A DNA stretch of 16,798 bases from a virus. Position 1 is the first letter of the stretch, and every line of letters starts with the position of its first letter. This document shows positions 974 to 16,442 of the stretch, piece by piece. Location of the stretch: the UHGV virus genome UHGV-0140151. One strand, given 5' to 3'. Under the pieces are notes generated by a model that worked only from the letters and a program-made list of their open reading frames with translations, searched no databases and was not told where the DNA came from. A program made the position numbers and the translations under genes.

Positions 974-1388
974 AGTTACGGCCTCACAATCAGGTTTAAC
1001 AACCTGCTACCCGCTGTCAAACAGGTGGCAGGACGTGACAGGGTTGACAGACTGGCGATTGTGAAACCAGCAGGCCGAAGCCTCCCCATCACGCCCCACC
1101 ATAATTTGGGCGTAACGCGGTTTAACGGACACAAAAATACCGCAATATCGGAAATCTGCGGTTGTCCGCACAATCATTCAGGCTGTCAAACCTGGTCGCA
1201 GAATTTGCTACGACGGCATGAATATAAGCCTGAACATTAGAAAGATCAACAGAATTTTTATCAGATGCTGTTTTTTGTGACGATGTAGATCATACATTCC
1301 CGATTAGAAACATCAATTTAATTTTCTAACACATAATTACGAGCGATGATTTTTCCGCCGCACAGTTATTGTACAGTCAATCGCAACA

Positions 1389-5476: not shown

Positions 5477-5659
5477 GTGAAGTATTCAGAGTTCAAACGC
5501 TGGTTAATCCAGCAAGGGGCAGAGTTCAGGAAAGCGCCTGGTGGCGGCAGTCATCAGAAAGTGAACCTGAACGGAAAGCGGTCGGTTTTCCCGGACCACG
5601 GTTCAAAGGAAATGCCTGAACCGCTACGCAAGAAAATAATGAAGGACCTGGGGCTTTAA
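5477..5659 (+). CDS. hicA: HicA-family mRNA interferase toxin
   Basis: 60-aa ORF with GTG start preceded by AAGGA. Sequence (GSHQK...GKRSVFPDHGSKEMPEPLRKKIMKDLGL) recalls E. coli HicA; immediately followed by hicB. Confidence 0.85.
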   Translation: MKYSEFKRWLIQQGAEFRKAPGGGSHQKVNLNGKRSVFPDHGSKEMPEPLRKKIMKDLGL

Positions 5660-5689
5660 GCCCCAGCCTTTTTCACTAGGAGCTTCTCT

Positions 5690-6121
5690 ATGTTTAACTA
5701 TCCGGTAAAACTGGAGCGCGACGACAAAACCGGCGCGTATGTCGTATCATGCCGCGACCTACCATTGTTTAATTCCGTGGGTGACTCAGTTGAAGAAGCG
5801 TTGCTTGAGGCTGGTTATGGATTGGTCGCAGCGGTTGCGATTGAGATTGAAGAACGCCGACCTGTTCCCACTGGTAGCGAGCCAAAAGAAGGTGAGTACG
5901 TTGTCTCTTTGCCAGTGCTACCAGCAATGAAGGCTGCACTCCACAACGCGATGATAGAAACCGGCACACGCAAAGCAGAGTTGGCGCGCAAACTCGGCAA
6001 AAATGGAACACAGATTGATCGGCTTCTCGACGTCGAACATTCATCGAAAGTTGAAACTGTCGAGCTGGCACTGCATCAACTGAATAAAAATATCGCCGTA
6101 TCTGTCACACCAATGCGGTGA
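5690..6121 (+). CDS. hicB: HicB-family antitoxin
   Basis: 143-aa ORF with AGGAG Shine-Dalgarno. HicB-like N-terminal domain and C-terminal HTH (RKAELARKLGKNGTQIDRLL). Its stop codon TGA (6119..6121) lies inside the IS-end-like repeat copy. Confidence 0.85.
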   Translation: MFNYPVKLERDDKTGAYVVSCRDLPLFNSVGDSVEEALLEAGYGLVAAVAIEIEERRPVPTGSEPKEGEYVVSLPVLPAMKAALHNAMIETGTRKAELARKLGKNGTQIDRLLDVEHSSKVETVELALHQLNKNIAVSVTPMR

Positions 6122-6147
6122 CTGCTCCCCGCCCTGGCTGGGCGAGG
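6118..6147 (+). repeat. solo copy of the IS200/IS605-type subterminal hairpin (gtgactgctccccgccctg...ggcgagg)
   Basis: 19-nt exact match to 7717..7735 (the end of the tnpB element), followed by the same imperfect palindrome ccccgccc-N-gggcgagg. Confidence 0.55.
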
Positions 6148-6293
6148 ATTTACGGGGTATTTGTTAAAAACGCTCTATTCAAAGAAGAAATACCGAATCC
6201 CCCGGAGGTTATCCGGGGTGTCCGGTCGCCAGGTCAGGTTTCCAGCCCAAAATCGCTTTGTTCTGTTTTGGCTTCGAACATCGTGAAGTTAAG

Positions 6294-6896: not shown

Positions 6897-6913
6897 GCAA
6901 GTGGAGTGTGGAT

Positions 6914-7666
6914 ATGGCTTATCGCGCAGATAGAGATTTAACATTTTTATCGCAGTGCAGCGATTGTGATCTTGATGATCTGGTCAATCTGTTGATTTAT
7001 GACAACGATGGAAAAAAACGCTGGACTGAAGAGTTATCAAACAACCCACTATATAAGCAATTTAGACCTCAACATAGCTTATACTGGCGTGAAATTGCAG
7101 CCGAAATCCAATGCTATGGTGGAAATACATTTGCAACATTGTTGCGTGGTGGAAAAGGAGTTTACTATAAAGAAATTCTTATTGATGTGTGTAAAAGGCT
7201 AAAAGTAAACTTTAATTCTGAAAGCGAAGTGGATGTGATTGAGAGAAATCTTCTTATGAAGATTTTAAGTGATGCTTTAGATAAAATGCCGCAGCAAGAC
7301 ATAAAAGAACTTGCTTTAGAGTTTGGTTTAGTAAACTTAAAAACATTCAATCGTGAAGCGATGCTGGCTGCAATACAATATATTTTTAATAGTGGCGGAT
7401 TTCGATCATATCAAATTACAGTTATGTTAGCCAATGTTATACTAAAGGCATTGATCGGTCGTGGTTTAACAATTGCAGCAAATGCGACTTTAGTTAGAAT
7501 AGTAAGCCTTTTAGCCGGTCCAATTGGATGGGCAATAACGGCCGCATGGACATTAGTTGACATTGGGGGCGCAGCTTATCGCGTTACAATACCTGCAGTG
7601 ATCCAACTAGCCGTTCTCAGAAGTAAAATAAACAATAATATAAAAGTTGATGACATTATTTTCTGA
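6914..7666 (+). CDS. hypothetical protein with a C-terminal glycine-rich hydrophobic (membrane-associating) region; possibly YaaW/UPF0174-like
   Basis: The ORF track starts at GTG 6908; ATG 6914 is preferred (GGAG 7 nt upstream). Sits 18 bp after the XRE gene. C-terminal segment GRGLTIAANATLVRIVSLLAGPIGWAITAAWTLVDIGGAAYRVTIPAVIQLAVL is hydrophobic and Gly/Ala-rich. Family resemblance is from memory only. Confidence 0.7.
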   Translation: MAYRADRDLTFLSQCSDCDLDDLVNLLIYDNDGKKRWTEELSNNPLYKQFRPQHSLYWREIAAEIQCYGGNTFATLLRGGKGVYYKEILIDVCKRLKVNFNSESEVDVIERNLLMKILSDALDKMPQQDIKELALEFGLVNLKTFNREAMLAAIQYIFNSGGFRSYQITVMLANVILKALIGRGLTIAANATLVRIVSLLAGPIGWAITAAWTLVDIGGAAYRVTIPAVIQLAVLRSKINNNIKVDDIIF

Positions 7667-7674
7667 TTAAAAAT

Positions 7675-7698
7675 GGGGCATTGCTGCCCCTTTCTTTC
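7675..7698 (+). terminator. intrinsic terminator of the cargo operon
   Basis: Stem ggggca / tgcccc with loop ttgc, followed by tttcttt; located 9 nt after the stop codon at 7666. Confidence 0.55.
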
Positions 7699-7700
7699 AC

Positions 7701-7900
7701 GCTGCATACCCGTTAGGTGACTGCTCCCCGCCCTGTCGGGCGAGGCTTCCCACTTCTCAGGCCGCAACCGTCTGTGTGACGGATTTACGCTGGCCTCCAT
7801 GGGCAGAAACGACGAGTCCCGCCGCTTGTAATTCCAGTATGCCCTTGCGTTTGATGTTGAGCGCCGCGTTGATATCGCGGTCATGTTCAACTCCACACTC
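7701..7900 (-). ncRNA. putative TnpB-associated omega RNA (reRNA) spanning the tnpB 3' end and right-end hairpin
   Basis: In characterised TnpB elements the guide RNA is made from the 3' end of tnpB plus the right end, with the guide read from flanking DNA. A strong hairpin is present at 7726..7745. Extent is inferred, not observed. Confidence 0.3.
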
Positions 7901-9045
7901 TGGACACTGCCAGATGCGCTTATGTAATGGCATCTCCGACATTTTGTGACCGCAGCAGTGGCAGGTTTTCGAACTGGCGAACCATTGATCCAGTTTCAAC
8001 AGATGCACACCTTTCTCTGCTGCTTTGTATTCCAGTTTTGTGATGAATCCAGACCATCCAGCATCGCCTATCGCACGAGCCAGATGGTGATTTTTCGTCA
8101 TATTTGCCGTTTTCAATGTCTCGACAATTACCGCTTGGTTTTCGTCAACAATTGCACGAGAGAGCTTGTGTTGAAAATCAGCACGGGCATTCGTCACCCG
8201 TTCATGTAAGGCCGCAAGACGGATTCTGGCCTTTTTACGGTTCGCGCTTCCCTTTTGTTTACGGGATAGCGCTTTTTGTTTGCGTCGCAGATTACGGCTG
8301 GCATTGATGAGATGGCGGGGATTCGCAATTTTTGCTCCGTCAGACCTGATGGCGTAGTGCTCAAGCCCCATATCCAGGCCAGTAACTGTTGATATCAACG
8401 TGGGTTTTGCCGGAGCTTCCAGACCATCATCGCAAAGTAGCGACGCATAATATTTACCCGTTTCTGAACGGGTGATAGTAATGCTTTTCAGCTTTCCATG
8501 AAGTTCACGATGAAGGCGTGCTTCTATCGGGGCCAGTTTGGGGATTTTGATGGCATTATCCAGCACCTTAATCCCGACACAGTGGTAGCTCGATTGTTTT
8601 CCGTGTTTACGTTTAAACGTCGGGAACTGCGCTTTCAGCTTCGGATTAAAAAAGTTGGAAAATGCCACATCAAGATTGATTACCGCCTGTTGCAATGCCA
8701 TTGAGTCAAATTCTTTGAGCCAGGCATATTTACGGGACTTTTTGGCCACAGACAACAACGGTTTCAGATCGTTACGCGGACTTAAATTTACTCCGTGTCT
8801 CTGGTAAGCGTGTTTTTTGATGTGAAGAGCTTTATTGTACGCAAAGCGTACCGCGCCGAACTGGGCATTGAGATACTTTGCCTGTTCCGGTGTTGGATAG
8901 ATGCGTACTTTTGTTGCTCTTAACATAGTCACTGCTCATTGGTACAGGTTTTTATGCTAACACCGTAATAATATTTTTAAAGCCCTATGGGCTTTTCCGC
9001 CTTTCCTCCCCGCCCGCATTGGGCGAGGGTTCTCGGCGGTTTTTC
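7717..9045 (-). mobile_element. IS200/IS605-family insertion sequence carrying tnpB only (no tnpA)
   Basis: TnpB ORF flanked by subterminal imperfect palindromes (7726..7745 and 9006..9028, both ctccccgccc-N-gggcgagg). The left boundary is set by the point where identity with the 6118 copy begins; the right boundary is approximate. Confidence 0.7.
7757..8932 (-). CDS. tnpB: TnpB (IS200/IS605 OrfB-family, RNA-guided nuclease-type transposase accessory protein)
   Basis: 391-aa ORF with N-terminal MTMLRATKVRIYPTPEQ, RuvC-like motifs (GLDMGLEHYA; EYKAAEKG) and a C-terminal zinc finger (CHCCGHK...CPECG). Confidence 0.9.
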   Translation of the reverse strand: MTMLRATKVRIYPTPEQAKYLNAQFGAVRFAYNKALHIKKHAYQRHGVNLSPRNDLKPLLSVAKKSRKYAWLKEFDSMALQQAVINLDVAFSNFFNPKLKAQFPTFKRKHGKQSSYHCVGIKVLDNAIKIPKLAPIEARLHRELHGKLKSITITRSETGKYYASLLCDDGLEAPAKPTLISTVTGLDMGLEHYAIRSDGAKIANPRHLINASRNLRRKQKALSRKQKGSANRKKARIRLAALHERVTNARADFQHKLSRAIVDENQAVIVETLKTANMTKNHHLARAIGDAGWSGFITKLEYKAAEKGVHLLKLDQWFASSKTCHCCGHKMSEMPLHKRIWQCPECGVEHDRDINAALNIKRKGILELQAAGLVVSAHGGQRKSVTQTVAA

Positions 9046-9398
9046 GCTGAAACCCAGTTTACGGTCTGTTCTTTGGCCTGGTCGAGTGTCAAAAATTCAC
9101 CAATATATTGAGATATGCCTCTCAAAGCATCGATGAACTCCATTTGTGATGATTTAGTAAATGCACCACTAAGGAAGTCAACAACAATTTTAGGCGTTTC
9201 TTGTGCCGCCGGTTGCACTTCCTCTTCTTGCTGTTGCGCTGGATTATTCGATGAACCAAGCCCCAGCTTCATCATCACTTCAACGATCCGCACGCCAATA
9301 GTGACACGTTGTACCGCAGTCGCGCTTTTTTGCGCTGACATCAGCTCAGACAGTTCTTTGCCTAAGCTAAGGCGCTCCGTTACTGATATTTTCACCAC
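8985..9398 (-). CDS. hypothetical phage protein whose 3' end is encoded by the IS left-end hairpin (chimeric or truncated)
   Basis: 137-aa ORF overlapping the upstream gene by 7 nt. Its last 16 codons (REPSPNAGGEERRKSP) and stop are encoded by 8985..9035, which lies within the IS end. Confidence 0.5.
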   Translation of the reverse strand: MVKISVTERLSLGKELSELMSAQKSATAVQRVTIGVRIVEVMMKLGLGSSNNPAQQQEEEVQPAAQETPKIVVDFLSGAFTKSSQMEFIDALRGISQYIGEFLTLDQAKEQTVNWVSAKNRREPSPNAGGEERRKSP

Positions 9399-11356
9399 AC
9401 GCCCCCTTGTTGTATCTCTGCCAAAATGTTGATCAGGTGATCGGCTGCCGCACCAACAAGTGACTCGTTCTCATCATATCGACCTGCGTTGATAAGAACA
9501 TTAGCTGCCTCCTGAATGCGATCAAACTCCGCTCTAATCACCGTCAAATCACGGGACGTAAACTGCAACGGCACGGATTTCAGATATTCCAGCGCACTGT
9601 CCGCCTCCTGATCAGCCTCACTAACGACTGGCCCATCTGAACCTGTATCAGACTCTTGGGGGGATTCAGGTTCAGACTCAGGTACTGGTTCTGGTACTGG
9701 TTCTGGTACTGCTTCCGGTGCCTGATCTAATGTCTGTTCAGCTTCGACTACTTCTGATTGATTCTGAAGCGCGTCATAGATATCCATTATAAAAAGGTTC
9801 TCCCCATCTCCAAGTGGATAAGCGACGTTAGGAAATGCTTTGCGGAAGAGGATTTTTATCTGCGCCTTAAAGGTTTTCAAGTCGCTTCCAAACAGATCAA
9901 CATAGCCATCAATATGGTTCGACATACTGGACGCAACCAATTCGCCTGCAATCTCTTTCAATTCATCGTCACCAGGGAGATATAGCAACTCGTACTGACT
10001 GACTTCTTCGTCTGTCAGTTTGCGGTCATACGTAATGATTCCGTGACGAGCATATTCGTAATACGGATCAGCCTGATCAGGACGGTCAAGTACAGCTTTA
10101 TTTCCTTCAGGAACCGCACCAACACCCGCTGGGCGAGATTGGAGCGCATAGCGATATTTACCAACCTCCAGGGGATCAGGATGTGATTCTGGTTGTGGTT
10201 CCTGTTCAGGCTGCTGCTGATCAGTTGGCTCAGGCTGGCCCGGCAACACATCCACTTTGTATTGATCAGCATTATGTTCACGATAGGCTTTAAGTAATTT
10301 GGTTGCAGCATCCGCTGAACTCCCACCTTTAACAGCACTGACATCAATACTGAAATTGCCTTCTGGTGCCTCAATCGTGACAAAGCTATCACTGCCTGAC
10401 GTGACATACTTAACTACAGCACCATTATCCAGCGTTGTTTGGCCTTCTGTAGCAAGATTATGTTTTATGTGTCGCAGTTGATCATTGAAGGCACGCTCTT
10501 TAGTTCCTTGGCTCTTAGCTGACAATAAATTATCGCGTTTAGCCTGCAATTCCGCGTTAAGGGCTTTTTGTACGTCTAATTTATTCTGCATATCATTGAG
10601 TGTTGAGCGTTTCTCTGCCAGCCCCCGCTGTGCGTCTTCAACCTGCTCAATCAGCACAGAACGTTCTTCTGCCAGCTTGTCGGCTTCATTGAGATACCCC
10701 TCAATATCAGCCTTCATTTTGTCCTGGCGCTCCTTTGCTTTTTTGAATTTTGCACTATTACGCTCAATGAGGTTAGAAAGCGCCTGGCATACCTGGCTCA
10801 GAGATACATCACGCCCACCGATTGGCGCAACAACATGCGTAACGTTTCTTTTGTTAAGAAGAAACTGAAACGCAACCAGCTCGTCATCCCCTTTAATTCT
10901 TGTGCCGTCTGCGGTTGGAGAATGGAAAATTATGCTTGTCGTTTGCCCATCGGTTAGAGGTATTTGTGCTGTTACAACAGGGATATTTGCAACCCGGCGC
11001 ACGCGCCCAATGATTGCCCCACCGATACTATTACGTCCGTCTTCATATTCTCCTGCCTCATCCGTACCCGCAGCAATGTCAGTGCCATTCAGGCCGCGAT
11101 TAAGCGCCCGGACGAATGCTCGCATTGTTTGCGCTAACCGCAATTTTGTTGTGGTTATAGCTTCGAACATTGCCTCATTGGTAGTTACCAAAATTTCGTT
11201 GCCCATATAGGCCAGCTCGATATCTTCCAGCGTCGCAGGCTCGATAAGTAAATCATCCTCGGTGATATCTTCCGCCACCCAACGATTAGGCGTATATCCA
11301 GTGAGCGTATCTGCAAAAGTGGACTGGATATTTATTCGAATAGGTTTCTTTATCAT
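9392..11356 (-). CDS. large acidic phage protein with coiled-coil and Pro/Glu-rich repeats (possibly a virion internal or Dar-like protein)
   Basis: 654-aa ORF whose start overlaps the upstream stop (ATGA). Contains PEPVPEPVPESEPE and PEQEPQPE low-complexity segments and a central coiled-coil. A DarA-like role is a guess from the operon context (holin-like gene upstream). Confidence 0.6.
   Translation of the reverse strand: MIKKPIRINIQSTFADTLTGYTPNRWVAEDITEDDLLIEPATLEDIELAYMGNEILVTTNEAMFEAITTTKLRLAQTMRAFVRALNRGLNGTDIAAGTDEAGEYEDGRNSIGGAIIGRVRRVANIPVVTAQIPLTDGQTTSIIFHSPTADGTRIKGDDELVAFQFLLNKRNVTHVVAPIGGRDVSLSQVCQALSNLIERNSAKFKKAKERQDKMKADIEGYLNEADKLAEERSVLIEQVEDAQRGLAEKRSTLNDMQNKLDVQKALNAELQAKRDNLLSAKSQGTKERAFNDQLRHIKHNLATEGQTTLDNGAVVKYVTSGSDSFVTIEAPEGNFSIDVSAVKGGSSADAATKLLKAYREHNADQYKVDVLPGQPEPTDQQQPEQEPQPESHPDPLEVGKYRYALQSRPAGVGAVPEGNKAVLDRPDQADPYYEYARHGIITYDRKLTDEEVSQYELLYLPGDDELKEIAGELVASSMSNHIDGYVDLFGSDLKTFKAQIKILFRKAFPNVAYPLGDGENLFIMDIYDALQNQSEVVEAEQTLDQAPEAVPEPVPEPVPESEPESPQESDTGSDGPVVSEADQEADSALEYLKSVPLQFTSRDLTVIRAEFDRIQEAANVLINAGRYDENESLVGAAADHLINILAEIQQGGVW
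9680..9715. repeat. three tandem 12-bp units (ggtactggttct) inside the 654-aa gene
   Basis: Directly visible; encodes in-frame PEPV repeats on the minus strand. Confidence 0.85.
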
Positions 11357-13268: not shown

Positions 13269-13841
13269 TTACAACTCAGTTTGAGTTTGGCGCTTCTCTA
13301 CAGGGTGATAACGATAAATCGTCGATACACCGATATCGTAAATAATTGCCAACTGTTTCCTGCTGTAGCCATTTTCGATCAACCTCGCTATTTGCTCATG
13401 TTGTTCTTTTGTCAACTTCGGGCGACGTCCGCCAATGCGTCCCTGTTCGCGTGCAGCTGCCAGTCCGGCCAGGGTTCTCTCAACAATTAATTCACGTTCC
13501 ATTTCTGCCAAAGCCCCCATGACGTGAAAAAAGAAACGCCCCATGGGTGTTGAGGTGTCAATGCTGTCTGTCAGACTACGGAAATTAACACCTTTTTCCC
13601 GCAGCTCCTCAATAAGCGTGATCAGGTGTTTCATACTTCTGCCGAGCCTGTCCAGCTTCCAGACAACCAGCGTATCTCCTTCTGATAACGTTCTGAGCAG
13701 CTTTTTCAATCCTGGTCTGGCTGACTTTGTTCCGCTGATTTTATCTTCAAAAATTAGTTCACATCCTGCGCAGTTCAGTGCATTTCTTTGTAAATCTGTG
13801 TTTTGGTCATTTGTTGACACACGAATGTAGCCAATTTGCAT
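13269..13841 (-). CDS. serine DNA invertase (Gin/Cin/Pin/Hin/Min family)
   Basis: ORF track gives 13269..13850; ATG 13841 is preferred (GAGG 9 nt upstream), giving MQIGYIRVSTNDQNTDLQRNAL... Catalytic-serine motif (VSTNDQ), central WKLDRLGRS and C-terminal HTH are typical of Pin/Cin. Confidence 0.9.
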   Translation of the reverse strand: MQIGYIRVSTNDQNTDLQRNALNCAGCELIFEDKISGTKSARPGLKKLLRTLSEGDTLVVWKLDRLGRSMKHLITLIEELREKGVNFRSLTDSIDTSTPMGRFFFHVMGALAEMERELIVERTLAGLAAAREQGRIGGRRPKLTKEQHEQIARLIENGYSRKQLAIIYDIGVSTIYRYHPVEKRQTQTEL

Positions 13842-13894
13842 GAAAAACATCCTCTTGTTTAGTTAAAAATACATAGTTGGTATAGGTAGGGATT

Positions 13895-13920
13895 AAGACT
13901 AAAACGTTGGTTTGGGGGAA
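13895..13920 (+). other. putative invertase crossover site 1 (gix/hix-like)
   Basis: aagactaaaacgTTggtttgggggaa; core AAAACG-TT-GGTTT resembles hix/gix (AAAACC-AA-GGTTT). About 50 bp from the invertase start, at the 5' edge of cassette 1. Confidence 0.45.
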
Positions 13921-14373
13921 GGCTCAGCATTGCCCGTTGGCGTGCCCGTTCCGTGGCCCTTAGAAACACCACCAACGGGCTGGCTGAAATGCAATGGTGC
14001 AGCATTTTCTTCTGAAAAGTACCCAAAACTGGCAAAGGCTTACCCGACAAATAAATTGCCTGATTTACGCGGTGAATTTATTCGTGGCTGGGATGATGGG
14101 CGTGGTGTGGATGCCGGGCGACAATTATTATCTTCACAGGGGGATGCAATAAGAAATATTGAGGGGTTCGCAGATGGCGGGATCGGCATGTCTTTTGATG
14201 CAATCAGAGGGGCTTTTTATGATGCAGGAACACGATCTGCGAGAATGCCGAATAACACAACTGATATAGGCAAAACCGATGACCTTGGATTCGACGCCTC
14301 TCGTGTCGTGCCAACAGCTAATGAAAACCGTCCTCGTAATATTGCCTTTAATTATATCGTAAGGGCGGCATAA
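13912..14373 (+). CDS. tail-fibre C-terminal variable cassette 1 (promoterless, silent orientation)
   Basis: Collar-type motif (PVPWP...TGWLKCNGAAFS...YP..LAKAYPTNKLPDLRGEFIRGWDDGRG), unique middle, shared ending RPRNIAFNYIVRAA. No ATG; the frame is open upstream through the crossover site. Confidence 0.7.
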   Translation: MGEGSALPVGVPVPWPLETPPTGWLKCNGAAFSSEKYPKLAKAYPTNKLPDLRGEFIRGWDDGRGVDAGRQLLSSQGDAIRNIEGFADGGIGMSFDAIRGAFYDAGTRSARMPNNTTDIGKTDDLGFDASRVVPTANENRPRNIAFNYIVRAA

Positions 14374-14392
14374 AAACGTTGGTTTGGGGGAA
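14367..14392 (+). other. putative invertase crossover site 2
   Basis: ggcataaaaacgTTggtttgggggaa; same core as site 1; overlaps the stop of cassette 1. Confidence 0.45.
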
Positions 14393-14890
14393 GGCTCTGC
14401 GCTGCCCGTTGGTGTACCTGTTCCATGGCCATCAGCCACACCGCCAACGGGGTGGCTGAAATGTAACGGAGCAGCATTTTCTTCTGAAAAGTACCCAAAT
14501 CTGGCAAAGGTTTACCCCACCAATAAATTGCCGGATCTACGGGGCGAATTTATTCGTGGCTGGGATGACGGACGTGGTATGGATACGGGGAGGGCAATAT
14601 TATCCGCTCAGGGCGATGCCATACGTAATATCTATGGTGAGTTCAAGACTGTAAACACCGAAAATTATTCAATATGGGAATCAGTAGGCTCGTTTAAGGG
14701 GGCAGTAGTGCCTTTGAGCCCCTCAACGAACAATAGTTATTTCTCCTTAGTCAGAAGTATGGTGACAGAAAGAACAGATGGCGCTGTTTACCCAAAAGTG
14801 ATTGGCCTTGATGCTTCAAGAATTGTTCCAACTGCAAACGAAAACCGTCCTCGTAACATTGCGTTTAATTACATCGTAAGAGCCGCATGA
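14384..14890 (+). CDS. tail-fibre C-terminal variable cassette 2 (silent)
   Basis: Same conserved 5' collar-type segment and 3' RPRNIAFNYIVRAA as cassette 1, with a different middle (...EFKTVNTENYSIWESVGSFKG...). Confidence 0.7.
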   Translation: MGEGSALPVGVPVPWPSATPPTGWLKCNGAAFSSEKYPNLAKVYPTNKLPDLRGEFIRGWDDGRGMDTGRAILSAQGDAIRNIYGEFKTVNTENYSIWESVGSFKGAVVPLSPSTNNSYFSLVRSMVTERTDGAVYPKVIGLDASRIVPTANENRPRNIAFNYIVRAA

Positions 14891-14909
14891 AAACGTTGGT
14901 TTGGGGGAA
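14884..14909 (+). other. putative invertase crossover site 3
   Basis: cgcatgaaaacgTTggtttgggggaa; same core as sites 1 and 2. Confidence 0.45.
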
Positions 14910-15362
14910 GGCTCTGCGCTGCCCGTTGGTGTACCTGTTCCGTGGCCCTCAGCCACACCACCAACGGGCTGGCTAAAATGTAACGGTGCGGCATTTTCTG
15001 CTGAAGAATACCCGGAATTGGCAAAGGCTTATCCGACAAATAAATTGCCTGATTTACGTGGTGAGTTTATGCGTGGCTGGGATGATGGAAGAGGCGTTGA
15101 TAGTGGCAGGGAGATTCTCACTGCGCAATCTCATGGTATGCCGTCTATTTCAGGAACGTTTAATGGTCTTTTTGCTGTTAAACAAACAAATGGTTTAGGT
15201 GGTGTTTCTGTAGTAAAAAGTAAAAATGCTGAAACTTTATCTACTTCATCTGGATCAGGTTCCGTGTTTGATTACACGTTTAATGTCAGCGGCTCGACTC
15301 CGGTATCACCAGAACTTCGTCCGCGTAATATTGCATTTAATTACATCGTAAGAGCGGCATAG
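14901..15362 (+). CDS. tail-fibre C-terminal variable cassette 3 (silent)
   Basis: Conserved ends as in cassettes 1 and 2; Gly/Ser-rich unique middle. Confidence 0.7.
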   Translation: MGEGSALPVGVPVPWPSATPPTGWLKCNGAAFSAEEYPELAKAYPTNKLPDLRGEFMRGWDDGRGVDSGREILTAQSHGMPSISGTFNGLFAVKQTNGLGGVSVVKSKNAETLSTSSGSGSVFDYTFNVSGSTPVSPELRPRNIAFNYIVRAA

Positions 15363-15381
15363 AAACGTTGGTTTAGGGGAA
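15356..15381 (+). other. putative invertase crossover site 4
   Basis: gcatagaaacgTTggtttaggggaag; same central AAACGTTGGTTT. Confidence 0.4.
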
Positions 15382-15402
15382 GGTTCGGCGCTGCCCGTTG
15401 GC

Positions 15403-15831
15403 GTGCCCGTTCCATGGCCCTCAGCCACACCGCCAACGGGGTGGCTAAAATGTAACGGAGCAGCATTTTCTTCTGAAAAGTACCCCAAGCTGGCAAAGGT
15501 TTACCCAACGTTAAAATTACCTGATTTACGCGGTGAGTTTATCCGTGGTTGGGATGATGGGCGAGGTGTGGATGCGGGAAGGGGCATCTTAAGCATACAG
15601 GGGTGGTTAACAGGAAGTCATTATCATAATATTCGGTCATGGGACGCGTGGGATAACACGGTATTGGTGCCAAATGACAGAGGGGGGGATAGTCTGTTGT
15701 CGACAGATAACGCCGTCCGAGAAGGAGCGATTAATGGTAAATTTACCAGTCAATACAGAACGGAGTTATCTGGGGGGGATGAAACCCGCCCACGTAACAT
15801 TGCCTTCAATTATATTGTGAGAGCAGCATAA
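15403..15831 (+). CDS. tail-fibre C-terminal variable cassette 4 (silent), translationally coupled to tfa
   Basis: Frame is open from site 4 (about 15361). Unique middle with HYH (GSHYHNIRSWD). Stop TAA overlaps the tfa ATG (TAATG). Confidence 0.7.
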   Translation: MPVPWPSATPPTGWLKCNGAAFSSEKYPKLAKVYPTLKLPDLRGEFIRGWDDGRGVDAGRGILSIQGWLTGSHYHNIRSWDAWDNTVLVPNDRGGDSLLSTDNAVREGAINGKFTSQYRTELSGGDETRPRNIAFNYIVRAA

Positions 15832-16442
15832 TGAATAATGCGATATTAAATAGCGAACTTATAGCCATACAGGCAGGAAACATTATCGTTTATAACTATG
15901 ATGGTGAGACACGGGAATATATTTCAGAGTCAACTGAATATCTTGCTGTGGGTGTTGGTATTCCGGCTAATTCCTGTTTAGATGCCCCAGGCGCACATAA
16001 ATCGGGCTATGCTATCCGCCGTTCGGAGGATTTAAATTCATGGGAGTATGCGCCAGACCATCGTGGTGAAACCGTCTATAGCACTGAAACGAGAAACTCC
16101 GAAGAAATAACGGCGCTGGGTGAATACCCGGAAAATACAACTACTCTCGCCCCGCTAACACCATACGACAAATGGGATGGAGATAAATGGGTGGTTGATA
16201 CTGAGGCTCAACATAGTGCAGCTGTAGAGGCAGCAGAAACAAAACGTCAGTCATTGATTGATACTGCGATGGCTTCCATTAGTCTGATTCAGTTGAAATT
16301 ACGGGCTGGACGGAAGTTGACGCAGGCAGAAACCACACAGCTTAACTCTGTGCTAGATTATATAGACGAGCTGAACGCGATGGATTTAACCACGGCACCA
16401 GATCTCAACTGGCCTGAAAAACAACTTTCTGCAGCCAGTTGA
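15831..16442 (+). CDS. tfa: tail-fibre assembly protein (Tfa/U-like chaperone)
   Basis: 203-aa ORF with features typical of Tfa proteins (DKWDGDKWVVD..., C-terminal LNSVLDYIDELNAMDLTTAPDLNWPE). Confidence 0.85.
   Translation: MNNAILNSELIAIQAGNIIVYNYDGETREYISESTEYLAVGVGIPANSCLDAPGAHKSGYAIRRSEDLNSWEYAPDHRGETVYSTETRNSEEITALGEYPENTTTLAPLTPYDKWDGDKWVVDTEAQHSAAVEAAETKRQSLIDTAMASISLIQLKLRAGRKLTQAETTQLNSVLDYIDELNAMDLTTAPDLNWPEKQLSAAS

Follow-up and report, generated by a model that had tools for sequence, protein, structure and literature searches.

A probable tnpA-less, ISEc46-like IS200/IS605 element with an intact tnpB gene and a predicted omega RNA in a D6-like phage-plasmid

Introduction

In IS608, an insertion sequence of Helicobacter pylori, the cleavage site is reportedly specified by a pairing rule that involves the tetranucleotide 5′ of each hairpin. 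In ISDra2 of Deinococcus radiodurans, TnpB is accompanied by an omega RNA with a scaffold of ~116 nt, which spans the 3′ end of tnpB together with the right end (RE), folds into four stems, and is followed by a 16-nt guide derived from the flank (PMC10097598, Nakagawa et al. 2023). Within this RNA, a 3-bp pseudoknot joins the stem-1 loop to positions -5 to -3 (PMC10097598). Short IS1341-type elements span 1,252-1,393 bp, and copies are assigned to the same insertion sequence when they share ≥90% nucleotide identity together with conserved ends and cleavage sites (PMC9956272).

Here, we describe positions 7717-9046 of UHGV virus genome UHGV-0140151; the window, meaning the whole stretch of DNA that was analysed, is 16,798 nt long. 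This interval is very probably a non-autonomous IS200/IS605 element of the ISEc46-like kind, which lost tnpA and kept both ends, an intact tnpB, and a predicted omega RNA.

Results

Element boundaries and host locus

By comparing the filled site with the empty site in sibling plasmids, we mapped an element of 1,330 bp, which comprises the left end (LE, 120 bp), tnpB (1,170 bp), and RE (40 bp). The empty site consists of ...CCCGTTAG joined directly to CTGAAACCC... and is contiguous in six plasmids; aligned to the filled site, this joint (...TTTCAG/CTAACGG...) revealed no target-site duplication at the insertion. A shared G leaves a 1-nt ambiguity, such that the element spans either 7717-9046 or 7716-9045. 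BLAST alignments with other copies stop at 7716/7717 and at 9050-9054, and across ~60 related elements, similarity ends exactly at ...AGCAGTCAC (equivalent to window position 7717), with unrelated flanks beyond. Related copies with the same ends are present in 848 E. coli records and 552 plasmid records, which argues that the element is no chance feature.

7717..9046, minus strand: whole element, 1,330 bp (±1 nt), from empty-site comparison with L003, L004, and six plasmids
8927..9046, minus strand: LE, from an LE alignment across 50 distinct elements; 85% identity to the ISEc46 LE
7757..8926, minus strand: tnpB coding sequence, 389 aa plus stop (ATG at 8926, stop at 7759-7757)
7717..7756, minus strand: RE, 3′ of the tnpB stop, with a boundary common to ~60 elements
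8985..9398, minus strand: ddrA-like gene with its 3′ end hit by the insertion, 136-137 aa depending on the start codon vs 122 aa when uninserted

The initial annotation had described positions 7701-9045 as a tnpB-only IS200/IS605 element; this interval corresponds to the mapped element plus the 16 flanking bases proposed as guide. The family assignment agrees with the subterminal imperfect hairpins in both LE and RE, the absence of terminal inverted repeats, and the mode of insertion, which took place without duplication and 3′ of a fixed motif that is retained at the LE flank.

The host is a D6-like (P1-related) phage-plasmid, with 87% identity to phage D6 and 97% identity to E. marmotae plasmid pRHBSTW-00605_3; based on these values, P1 itself was ruled out as the identity of the window. 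The element inserted 3′ of TCAG and within the final codons of a ddrA-like anti-restriction gene, at the end of a lydA-lydB-hdf-darA-ddrA block. An earlier placement in the phage late region was approximately right, except that the element lies inside this gene rather than between late genes. In the ddrA-like gene, a 19-residue tail encoded by LE takes the place of the last five codons, and the insertion explains the aberrant, extended ddrA-like open reading frame (ORF) in the annotation. The tnpB gene is co-oriented with the dar-type operon. Elsewhere in the window, we observed a degenerate 48-nt LE/RE footprint, showing that such elements decay in this plasmid lineage.

TnpB protein

The tnpB gene encodes a 389-aa protein from the ATG at 8926, or a 391-aa protein from an alternative in-frame GTG at 8932. 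The protein matched all three Pfam domains (HTH_OrfB_IS605, OrfB_IS605, and Cas12f1-like_TNB) and scored 350 bits against NCBIfam guided_TnpB (cut-off 100). It aligned to ISDra2 TnpB (PDB 8bf8/8exa/8h1j) over residues 4-380 with an E-value of 4e-78. In this alignment, the RuvC triad is kept, as D185, E269, and D351 correspond to ISDra2 D191, E278, and D361, and the four cysteines C322, C325, C341, and C344 (CCCC) align with those of the ISDra2 zinc finger. Together, the domain matches and the ISDra2 alignment outline the WED/REC-RuvC-TNB architecture expected of RNA-guided endonucleases. The protein had been called intact, with mutated catalytic residues named as grounds for doubt; the full-length ORF and the conserved D/E/D and zinc-finger residues uphold that call.

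Within tnpB, a nearly invariant 21-nt block (8148-8128) displays synonymous-site conservation, which may mark a signal, so far undescribed, that acts at the RNA or DNA level in this TnpB family. A simple scan of 7600-9450 detected no sigma-70 consensus promoter. The identical TnpB protein was found at only this one site, on three contigs representing two or more samples; this copy may thus not have moved recently.

Transposon ends and target motif

Both ends carry the arrangement of hairpins and tetranucleotides listed below, which was read from the sequence and, for LE, from the LE alignment.

9047..9051, minus strand: 5′ flanking motif TTCAG with core TCAG, the TnpA target/cleavage tetranucleotide and presumed TAM for TnpB
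9046-9029, minus strand: LE leader of 18 nt, CGAAAAACCGCCGAGAAC
9032-9029, minus strand: LE guide tetranucleotide GAAC, the last four bases of the leader
9028-9008, minus strand: LE hairpin, CCTCGCCC (9028-9021), loop AATGC, GGGCGGGG (9015-9008)
within 8927..9046, minus strand: second LE hairpin AAAGCCCATAGGGCTTT, 3′ of the first
within LE after the second hairpin, minus strand: tnpB 5′ UTR with conserved box CAATGAGC(A/G)(G/C)TGA
7749-7746, minus strand: RE guide tetranucleotide GAAG
7745-7726, minus strand: RE hairpin, CCTCGCCC-GACA-GGGCGGGG
7720-7717, minus strand: cleavage tetranucleotide TCAC, within the RE tail AGCAGTCAC

The RE hairpin is located exactly where it had been proposed, and the LE and RE hairpins are near-identical, with CCTCGCCC/GGGCGGGG stems in the same orientation. 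Paired with their guides, the cleavage sites (TCAG with GAAC at LE, TCAC with GAAG at RE) fit the IS608 rule. Judged by their sequence, both ends keep the hairpins and tetranucleotide pairs that a cognate TnpA would read, and they would be mobilisable.

Across the family, cleavage site and LE guide co-vary: TCAG goes with GAAC, and the remaining members combine TTAG with AAAC. The 5′ flanks of the TCAG-group copies recovered are TTCAG at four insertion sites and ATCAG at a fifth.

Loss of tnpA and kinship with ISEc46

We used TBLASTN to search the window with TnpA sequences from five relatives, and this analysis identified no tnpA (best E-value 0.055); a Pfam search of neighbouring ORFs also found none. 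A 444-bp tnpA segment is present in full-length ISEc46 (L093), is kept in many relatives, and is precisely missing here. In full-length relatives, TnpA is a Y1_Tnp protein (E-value 1.6e-35), and this copy lacks the Y1 (HUH) transposase that is a criterion of IS200/IS605. Because the family admits tnpB-only members (the IS1341 group), the absence of tnpA makes this copy non-autonomous rather than excluding it, in line with its first description.

The element shares 84-85% nucleotide identity with two ISEc46 copies, below the naming threshold, and has TCAG in place of TTAG as its left cleavage site; on these sequence comparisons, it would best be called ISEc46-like. The best database copy is 94.7% identical and occupies another site in another D6-like plasmid. 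Three further sites in D6/P1-like phage-plasmids carry related tnpA-less copies (L003, L090, and phage RCS47, in which the copy is annotated as ISEc46). Counting viral contigs as well as related phage-plasmids, the tnpA-less lineage has settled in at least five different sites and has relatives in many plasmids, which indicates that it kept moving after the loss of tnpA.

Predicted omega RNA

We used RNAalifold and pair counts on 67 family sequences to predict the structure of an omega RNA at the tnpB 3′ end; the candidate pseudoknot is ISDra2-like.

7717..7834, minus strand: predicted omega RNA scaffold, 118 nt, covering the last ~25 tnpB codons plus RE
7827-7820 with 7814-7807, minus strand: predicted stem 1
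7803-7799 with 7753-7749, minus strand: predicted stem 2
7795-7792 with 7763-7760, plus 7788-7787 with 7765-7764, minus strand: predicted stem 3a
7782-7778 with 7772-7768, minus strand: predicted stem 3b
7745-7738 with 7733-7726, minus strand: predicted stem 4
GAC 7818-7816 with GUC 7721-7719, minus strand: candidate pseudoknot

Among the 67 sequences, 97.4% of 1,932 cells pair, vs 33-56% when the partners are slid, and compensatory double changes affect 18 of 29 pairs, vs 4-7 when slid. The covariation score was 0.457, vs 0.05-0.13 for slid partners, and none of 500 shuffles reached it. Across 7830-7760, the synonymous-difference fraction drops from ~0.5 to 0.21-0.26. Family-wide conservation ends at the transposon boundary, with a variable flank beyond. 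We also built a covariance model from 53 relatives, leaving out this sequence and its close kin; it matched over its full length with 136.6 bits (E-value 4.8e-31), and all helices are intact here. The helices lie at nearly the same positions as stems 1-4 of ISDra2, and the candidate pseudoknot would correspond to that of ISDra2.

The candidate pseudoknot is 96.5% paired; both sides are nearly invariant without covariation, and the middle pair is broken in 7 of 67 sequences. RNAalifold itself proposed an outer helix that pairs the catalytic Asp codon (columns 19-21) with the RE-tip GUC. Neither this helix nor the pseudoknot covaries, and we set the helix aside for the ISDra2-like pseudoknot.

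At the gathering threshold, an Rfam search of the whole window identified only C4 and its a1/b1 targets, and no Rfam 15 family reached threshold at the predicted omega RNA. At a permissive E-value within 7600-9150, only sub-threshold matches appeared, to HgcC at 7704-7816 on the minus strand (15.4 bits, E-value 1.1) and to sot0042 on the two hairpins (E-values 4-7); neither was significant, and we set both aside. HgcC and sot0042 are tnpB-3′-end RNAs in archaea.

The initial annotation had predicted an omega RNA at the tnpB 3′ end, to be abandoned if no conserved structured RNA was found there; the covariation, the constrained synonymous sites, and the independent model match all point to such a structure. 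It had also proposed a covariance-model search, for which Rfam offered no matching family and the dedicated model succeeded.

Guide, target, and proposed mechanism

7701..7716, minus strand: predicted 16-nt guide CUAACGGGUAUGCAGC, adjoining the mapped RE and supplied by the phage-plasmid DNA next to the insertion
7675..7690, bidirectional: hairpin of an intrinsic terminator that belongs to the host locus, 10 nt past the guide, also in the uninterrupted L003 locus

The guide had been proposed at 7701-7716, and these are exactly the 16 nt that adjoin the mapped right end; its length follows that of the ISDra2 guide. In sibling empty sites, TTCAG is followed by the guide 16-mer with 16 of 16 matches in L004 and 15 of 16 in L003. 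The terminator at 7675..7690 probably ends read-through transcripts that contain the omega RNA.

By homology with the ISDra2 and Geobacillus TnpB systems, we infer the following steps of transcription, processing, and cleavage. Transcription of tnpB would start in the region upstream of the gene or read through from the dar-type operon, which has the same orientation, and the 3′ part of the transcript would yield a scaffold of ~116-118 nt with four stems and a pseudoknot, followed by the 16-nt flank-derived guide. TnpB would then bind the omega RNA and cut DNA in which TTCAG precedes CTAACGGGTATGCAGC; this target would be the empty joint at the donor site or a sibling plasmid that lacks the insertion. 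The element would be restored by recombination from the inserted copy, or empty copies would be eliminated. To move to a new site, the element would depend on a cognate TnpA provided in trans, such as that of a full ISEc46.

Discussion

Alternative explanations

It is rather improbable that TnpB and its omega RNA have been exapted and are retained to destroy co-resident or superinfecting siblings with an uninserted ddrA allele, a form of competition or exclusion that would go further than the self-maintenance of a transposon. Such a role would be consistent with the perfect TAM and 16-nt target in circulating sibling plasmids, the tnpA-less relatives at three other D6/P1-like sites, and the possible co-expression of tnpB with the dar-type operon. 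However, this targeting follows automatically from standard TnpB homing, so exaptation is unneeded, and conjugative plasmids and chromosomes carry the family at least as often.

We give little credence to the element being a dead remnant that has drifted since tnpA was lost, with TnpB and its RNA no longer made or active. The missing tnpA, the lack of a consensus promoter in the scan, the single site of the exact protein, and the decay evident in the 48-nt footprint would all be expected of a fossil; the full-length ORF with every catalytic and zinc residue, the two intact ends with matched cleavage and guide tetranucleotides, and the RNA scaffold with each helix preserved would not. The spread of the tnpA-less lineage to at least five sites and the related copies in many plasmids also argue against a fossil, as they imply mobility after the loss.

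Covariation is blind to the difference between RNA and single-stranded DNA, and the terminal hairpin at 7745-7726 is of the type bound by Y1 transposases and has a near-identical counterpart in LE. It is nevertheless very improbable that the covarying helices are purely DNA hairpins read by TnpA at excision and integration, with no RNA. Six of the seven helices are contained in or overlap the coding region, in which TnpA requires no structure, and five or six helices besides the terminal one reach 60-110 nt into the tnpB coding sequence with no LE counterpart. G-U predominates at two positions of helix 2 (stem 1), which may be counted in favour of the DNA reading, but the frequent toleration of G-U pairs (columns 70-86, 73-83, 99-145, and 111-133) fits RNA, as does the stem-for-stem agreement with the ISDra2 omega RNA determined by cryo-EM.

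RNA-guided repressors are reported to have arisen several times by domestication of TnpB relatives, but we rejected a nuclease-dead, TldR-type repressor whose RNA regulates a host or phage gene as scarcely credible, based on the intact RuvC triad, the position of the gene between functional-looking transposon ends, and a guide that is simply the insertion flank.

Significance

The preferred reading remains that of a non-autonomous ISEc46-like element, and as such it is mostly a clean worked example that leaves current understanding in place. A bolder interpretation, which we consider unlikely, is that a tnpA-less ISEc46 lineage, retargeted from TTAG to TCAG by a compensatory left-end change, spreads among P1/D6-like phage-plasmids and uses TnpB-omega RNA as a gene drive or exclusion weapon that cuts the uninserted allele of siblings entering the same cell; if true, a transposon would shape competition among phage-plasmids beyond its own retention.

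The switch from TTAG/AAAC to TCAG/GAAC represents a natural case of target re-specification via the left-end guide tetranucleotide, and it raises the question of whether the TAM preference of TnpB moved too (TTCAG vs ancestral TTAG). Rfam does not model the omega RNA of this clade of TnpB proteins, which is widespread in gamma-proteobacteria; the analysis supports its structure by comparison and supplies a working covariance model. As a 389-aa protein that is closely related to ISDra2 TnpB but has another motif (TTCAG or TTAG), TnpB of this clade may also interest those mining for compact editors.

Comparison with known systems

As in IS608, the target tetranucleotide precedes the LE hairpin by ~18 nt, the cleavage site follows the RE hairpin at a distance of 9 nt, and the same positional pairing rule applies. 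The tetranucleotides of IS608 differ in sequence (TTAC and TCAA), and IS608 has tnpA upstream of tnpB in the same orientation, whereas the element here has none.

Like members of the IS1341 group, the element carries a single tnpB between LE and RE, and its 1,330 bp fall within the range for short IS1341-type elements. Because close relatives keep tnpA, however, it is a deletion derivative of an IS605-type element rather than a member of an independent tnpB-only lineage. We saw no tnpA-derived sequence >20 bp between LE and tnpB, so the criterion in PMC9956272 still files it under IS1341.

TnpB belongs to the same protein fold family as ISDra2 TnpB and has the same catalytic and zinc residues. 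The predicted RNA layout is shared as well, with four stems at nearly the same offsets; the pseudoknot is a candidate here. In contrast, the stem sequences differ, the motif is TTCAG rather than TTGAT, and ISDra2 retains tnpA.

The closest system is ISEc46, an IS605-group element of E. coli with divergent tnpA and tnpB (e.g., in plasmid NZ_CP063488.1). The two share the LE and RE architecture and the RE terminus ...GGGGAGCAGTCAC, with 89% aa identity in TnpB and nucleotide identities of 85% in LE and 84% in tnpB plus RE. They differ in the 444-bp tnpA segment, which ISEc46 has, and in the target, which is TTAG with LE guide AAAC in ISEc46 and TCAG with GAAC here. Elements with TnpB and an omega RNA have been described before, enterobacterial plasmids commonly carry ISEc46-like copies, and the element is a further example of this known kind.

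Identity of the element and loss of tnpA

Using BLAST, we found related copies with the same ends in 848 E. coli records and 552 plasmid records; the copy in phage RCS47 is annotated as ISEc46. A full-length ISEc46 in plasmid NZ_CP063488.1 consists of a left end (LE), a divergent tnpA, tnpB, and a right end (RE). The element in the window aligned to it with 85% nucleotide identity at LE and 84% across tnpB and RE (89% aa identity for TnpB), but it lacks the 444 bp that hold tnpA. The divergent tnpA is retained in many other relatives, and its product is a Y1_Tnp protein (E = 1.6e-35). TBLASTN with the TnpA proteins of five relatives identified no tnpA in the window, and based on Pfam the neighboring ORFs are only phage and toxin-antitoxin genes. 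From the missing segment and this search, we therefore identify the element, with high confidence, as an ISEc46-like member of the IS200/IS605 family that is non-autonomous through deletion of tnpA, in agreement with the initial annotation of a tnpB-only, non-autonomous element.

The closest database copy (94.7% identical) is inserted elsewhere, in the repL-icd interval of another D6-like plasmid. Copies of the ISEc46-like element without tnpA are found in P1/D6-like phage-plasmids and viral contigs: E. marmotae plasmid pRHBSTW-00605_3 (L003, 6467-7801), L090 (3001-4337), L001 (6001-7343), and L085-L089. Their sites include portal/hicA in the E. marmotae plasmid, repL/icd in E. coli p1_035148, and a position downstream of repL in phage RCS47; because these sites differ, P1/D6-like phage-plasmids have been hit repeatedly by this lineage.

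Insertion site and host phage-plasmid

The window, a 16,798-bp metagenome contig (ENA ERZ1749178 NODE_1168), belongs to a D6-like, P1-related phage-plasmid. Phage D6 shares 87% identity with it across shared genes, and ~90-kb non-mobilisable plasmids of E. marmotae and E. coli share 95-98% identity over shared segments. The window carries a P1-type C4 antisense RNA with its a1/b1 targets, and this immunity-I module lies upstream of icd and the ant/Rha gene. On the minus strand, the gene order is ant/rha, icd, repL, pro, and portal, followed by a variable plus-strand block (hicA, hicB, an ORF without assigned function, an HTH gene, and a DUF3944 gene), after which the minus strand resumes with ddrA-like, darA, hdf, lydB, and lydA; a Cin-type invertase and tail-fibre cassettes follow.

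Features of the window
1021-1106 and 1175-1227, minus: C4 antisense RNA and a1/b1 target sites (68.4 bits for C4, 54.4 bits for a1/b1)
5477-6121, plus: hicA (60 aa) and hicB-like (143 aa) toxin-antitoxin pair, in the variable block from the portal gene to the dar-type operon
6908-7666, plus: DUF3944 protein gene, immediately upstream of the insertion site
7675-7690, bidirectional: terminator hairpin of the host locus, 10 nt past the predicted guide
8926 (ATG) to 7759-7757 (stop), minus: tnpB ORF, 389 aa
13269-16442: Cin-type serine invertase region (invertase domains Resolvase and HTH_7)

A second match of the DUF3944 protein, to Ubiq_cyt_C_chap (E = 5e-12), is unusual for an accessory gene of a phage-plasmid. 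Several short plus-strand ORFs beside the invertase match tail-fibre and tail-fibre-assembly genes of many phages; together with the invertase they form a P1/Mu-style invertible host-range segment (13269-16442), and the invertase is oriented in reverse of that in D6.

In sibling plasmids, the empty site reads ...CCCGTTAG/CTGAAACCC..., and six plasmid records contain this junction without interruption. The comparison therefore delimits the inserted DNA to 7717-9046 (1,330 bp, ±1 nt owing to a shared G), with no target duplication. Similarity among ~60 related elements from Photorhabdus, Serratia, Aeromonas, Vibrio, Idiomarina, Halomonas, and others stops exactly at ...GGGGAGCAGTCAC (= 7717), and their flanks are unrelated. 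The element had been placed at 7701-9045: the 9045 end falls within 1 nt of the true left boundary, but the 7701 start lies 16 nt outside RE and so takes in the flanking bases proposed as guide. The insertion sits within the ddrA-like gene, whose protein does not differ from the uninserted homologue until after ...TVNWVSA (residue 117 of 122); the last five residues are replaced by an LE-encoded tail, giving a product of 136-137 aa. The tnpB gene and the dar-type block are co-oriented. Because the homologous dar operon of P1 is late-expressed, the earlier placement in a phage late region is approximately right.

Transposon ends and targeting

In a comparison of 50 distinct left ends, the tetranucleotide flanking the element covaries with the four bases immediately 5' of its LE hairpin: TTAG occurs with AAAC in at least 38 of the 50, ISEc46 included, and TCAG with GAAC in 6/6 of the window's group. 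According to the IS608 rule reportedly established by Barabas 2008 and Guynet 2009, the second base of the cleavage site is paired with the first base of an internal guide tetranucleotide, which makes the T-A to C-G difference compensatory. On this basis the window's lineage has re-specified its target from TTAG to TCAG, phylogenetically a single event. The RE pair, TCAC with GAAG, obeys the rule too. Both ends therefore seem fully usable by a Y1 TnpA provided in trans, which would mobilise the element.

A second IS200/IS605 element has left a 48-nt solo footprint, AAATACCCCGTAAATCCTCGCCC-AGCC-AGGGCGGGGAGCAGTCAC, at 6118-6165 on the minus strand. It comprises an LE-type leader, one hairpin, and an RE-type tail, and is preceded by TTAA (possibly a mutated TTAG). 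The hicB stop codon is overlapped by its GTCAC tip, and the whole footprint is kept at the same place in L003 and L087. The match of the omega RNA covariance model (24.8 bits) is confined to its hairpin and tail. The footprint could be a miniature element or the product of a deletion between the LE and RE hairpins.

Predicted guide and its natural target

The 16 nt directly beyond the mapped RE, CTAACGGGTATGCAGC (7716-7701), coincide with the guide position previously predicted. The 5' flank of LE is TTCAG (9051-9047); the TCAG-group copies recovered, at five insertion sites, are flanked by TTCAG at four and ATCAG at one. Because both flanks adjoin in the uninserted allele, TTCAG plus guide is present there, matching at 16/16 positions in NZ_CP104667.1 and 15/16 in pRHBSTW-00605_3. 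This is the arrangement that the TnpB homing/retention model, reportedly due to Karvelis 2021 and Meers 2023, would lead one to expect; cleavage by TnpB would depend on TTCAG. Exaptation as an inter-plasmid weapon is unlikely and is not needed as an explanation. A dead fossil is quite unlikely, as the element is completely intact and tnpA-less copies occupy several sites. That the window copy is active is somewhat less certain than its identity; the account as a whole, identity and proposed activity together, is very probably correct.

A conserved structured RNA at the 3' end of tnpB

The right-end hairpin was found at exactly the positions first reported, 7726-7745. An alignment was made of the 3'-terminal 175 nt from 67 distinct family members; on it, RNAalifold predicted 32 pairs, 18 with compensatory double changes. 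Among 29 retained pairs, pairing was standard in 97.4% of 1,932 cells, versus 33-56% when 3' partners were slid by 1-3 columns; double changes occurred in 18 of the 29 (4-7 when slid), and the covariation score was 0.457 (0.05-0.13 when slid). The observed values were reached by 0/500 shuffles. The synonymous-difference fraction at identical-amino-acid codons falls from ~0.5 along tnpB to 0.21-0.26 over 7830-7760. An independent covariance model, built from 53 relatives excluding the window and its E. coli-group kin, matched 7834-7717(-) over its full length with filters off (136.6 bits, E = 4.8e-31). Covariation, synonymous constraint, and this match together establish the structured RNA anticipated at this position. 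The single-sequence fold has -61.1 kcal/mol (z = -2.66), and no Rfam 15 family reached threshold at the element. The region would be transcribed and then processed to a ~130-nt omega RNA; read-through transcripts would stop at the host-locus terminator and would then have to be trimmed.

The cryo-EM structure of the omega RNA of ISDra2, the Deinococcus radiodurans system, has a 116-nt scaffold (PMC10097598). Numbered backwards from the RE tip, the helices have essentially the same offsets.

Helix positions in the window RNA and in ISDra2 omega RNA
Stem 1: here -111..-104 with -98..-91; ISDra2 -116..-111 with -91..-86
Stem 2: here -87..-83 with -37..-33; ISDra2 -84..-81 with -35..-32
Stem 3a: here -79..-76 with -47..-44; ISDra2 -77..-71 with -48..-42
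Stem 3b: here -66..-62 with -56..-52; ISDra2 -70..-49
Stem 4: here -29..-22 with -17..-10; ISDra2 tetraloop at -20..-17

In ISDra2, -5..-3 pairs with the stem-1 loop as a pseudoknot (PMC10097598); the candidate counterpart here, GUC (7721-7719) with GAC (7818-7816), is 96.5% paired and, because it is nearly invariant among aligned members, is compatible with such pairing as a candidate only. That the conserved structure serves as DNA only is very unlikely. The last helix alone is the RE hairpin, the one TnpA would need as DNA, but the other six lie 60-110 nt inside the tnpB frame or across its end and are without an LE counterpart. Such helices deep in coding sequence, frequent G-U pairs, and a layout matching ISDra2 omega RNA argue for an RNA.

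TnpB and comparison with known systems

The tnpB product has three Pfam TnpB domains and matches NCBIfam guided_TnpB at 350 bits. Its residues 4-380 align with ISDra2 TnpB (PDB 8bf8, 8exa, 8h1j; E = 3.9e-78), in which the residue roles are known (PMC10097598). Counted along the alignment, ISDra2 D191, E278, and D361 correspond to D185, E269, and D351, and zinc cysteines C331, C334, C351, and C354 to C322, C325, C341, and C344. TnpB is thus intact, as initially described, and this protein alignment shows no sign of inactivation. A TldR-type repressor is most improbable with the RuvC triad intact.

Within tnpB, a block, (A/G)TTGACGAAAACCAAGCGGT (8128-8148, minus strand), hardly varies at synonymous sites across 45 family members, which range from E. 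coli to Halomonas (synonymous-difference fraction 0.26-0.31 vs about 0.5). It lies ~410-430 nt upstream of RE, outside the omega scaffold; it may serve as a promoter within the gene, as a site of RNA processing, or as a partner in long-range pairing. Another conserved sequence, the box CAATGAGC(G/A)(C/G)TGA (8935-8947, minus strand), sits 3-6 nt upstream of the tnpB ATG. Nearly every family member has this box, whether tnpA is present or not; it could function in translation or regulation, or constitute a very short upstream ORF (ATG AGC GCT GA).

Elements of this kind are already familiar, and their family is common and has been catalogued. The window copy adds a diverged sequence and comparative support for the omega RNA; it also has a variant target, TCAG, and lies in a phage-plasmid. 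Two copies are assigned to the same IS at 90% identity (PMC9956272); at 84-85% nucleotide identity to ISEc46, the window element falls below that threshold.
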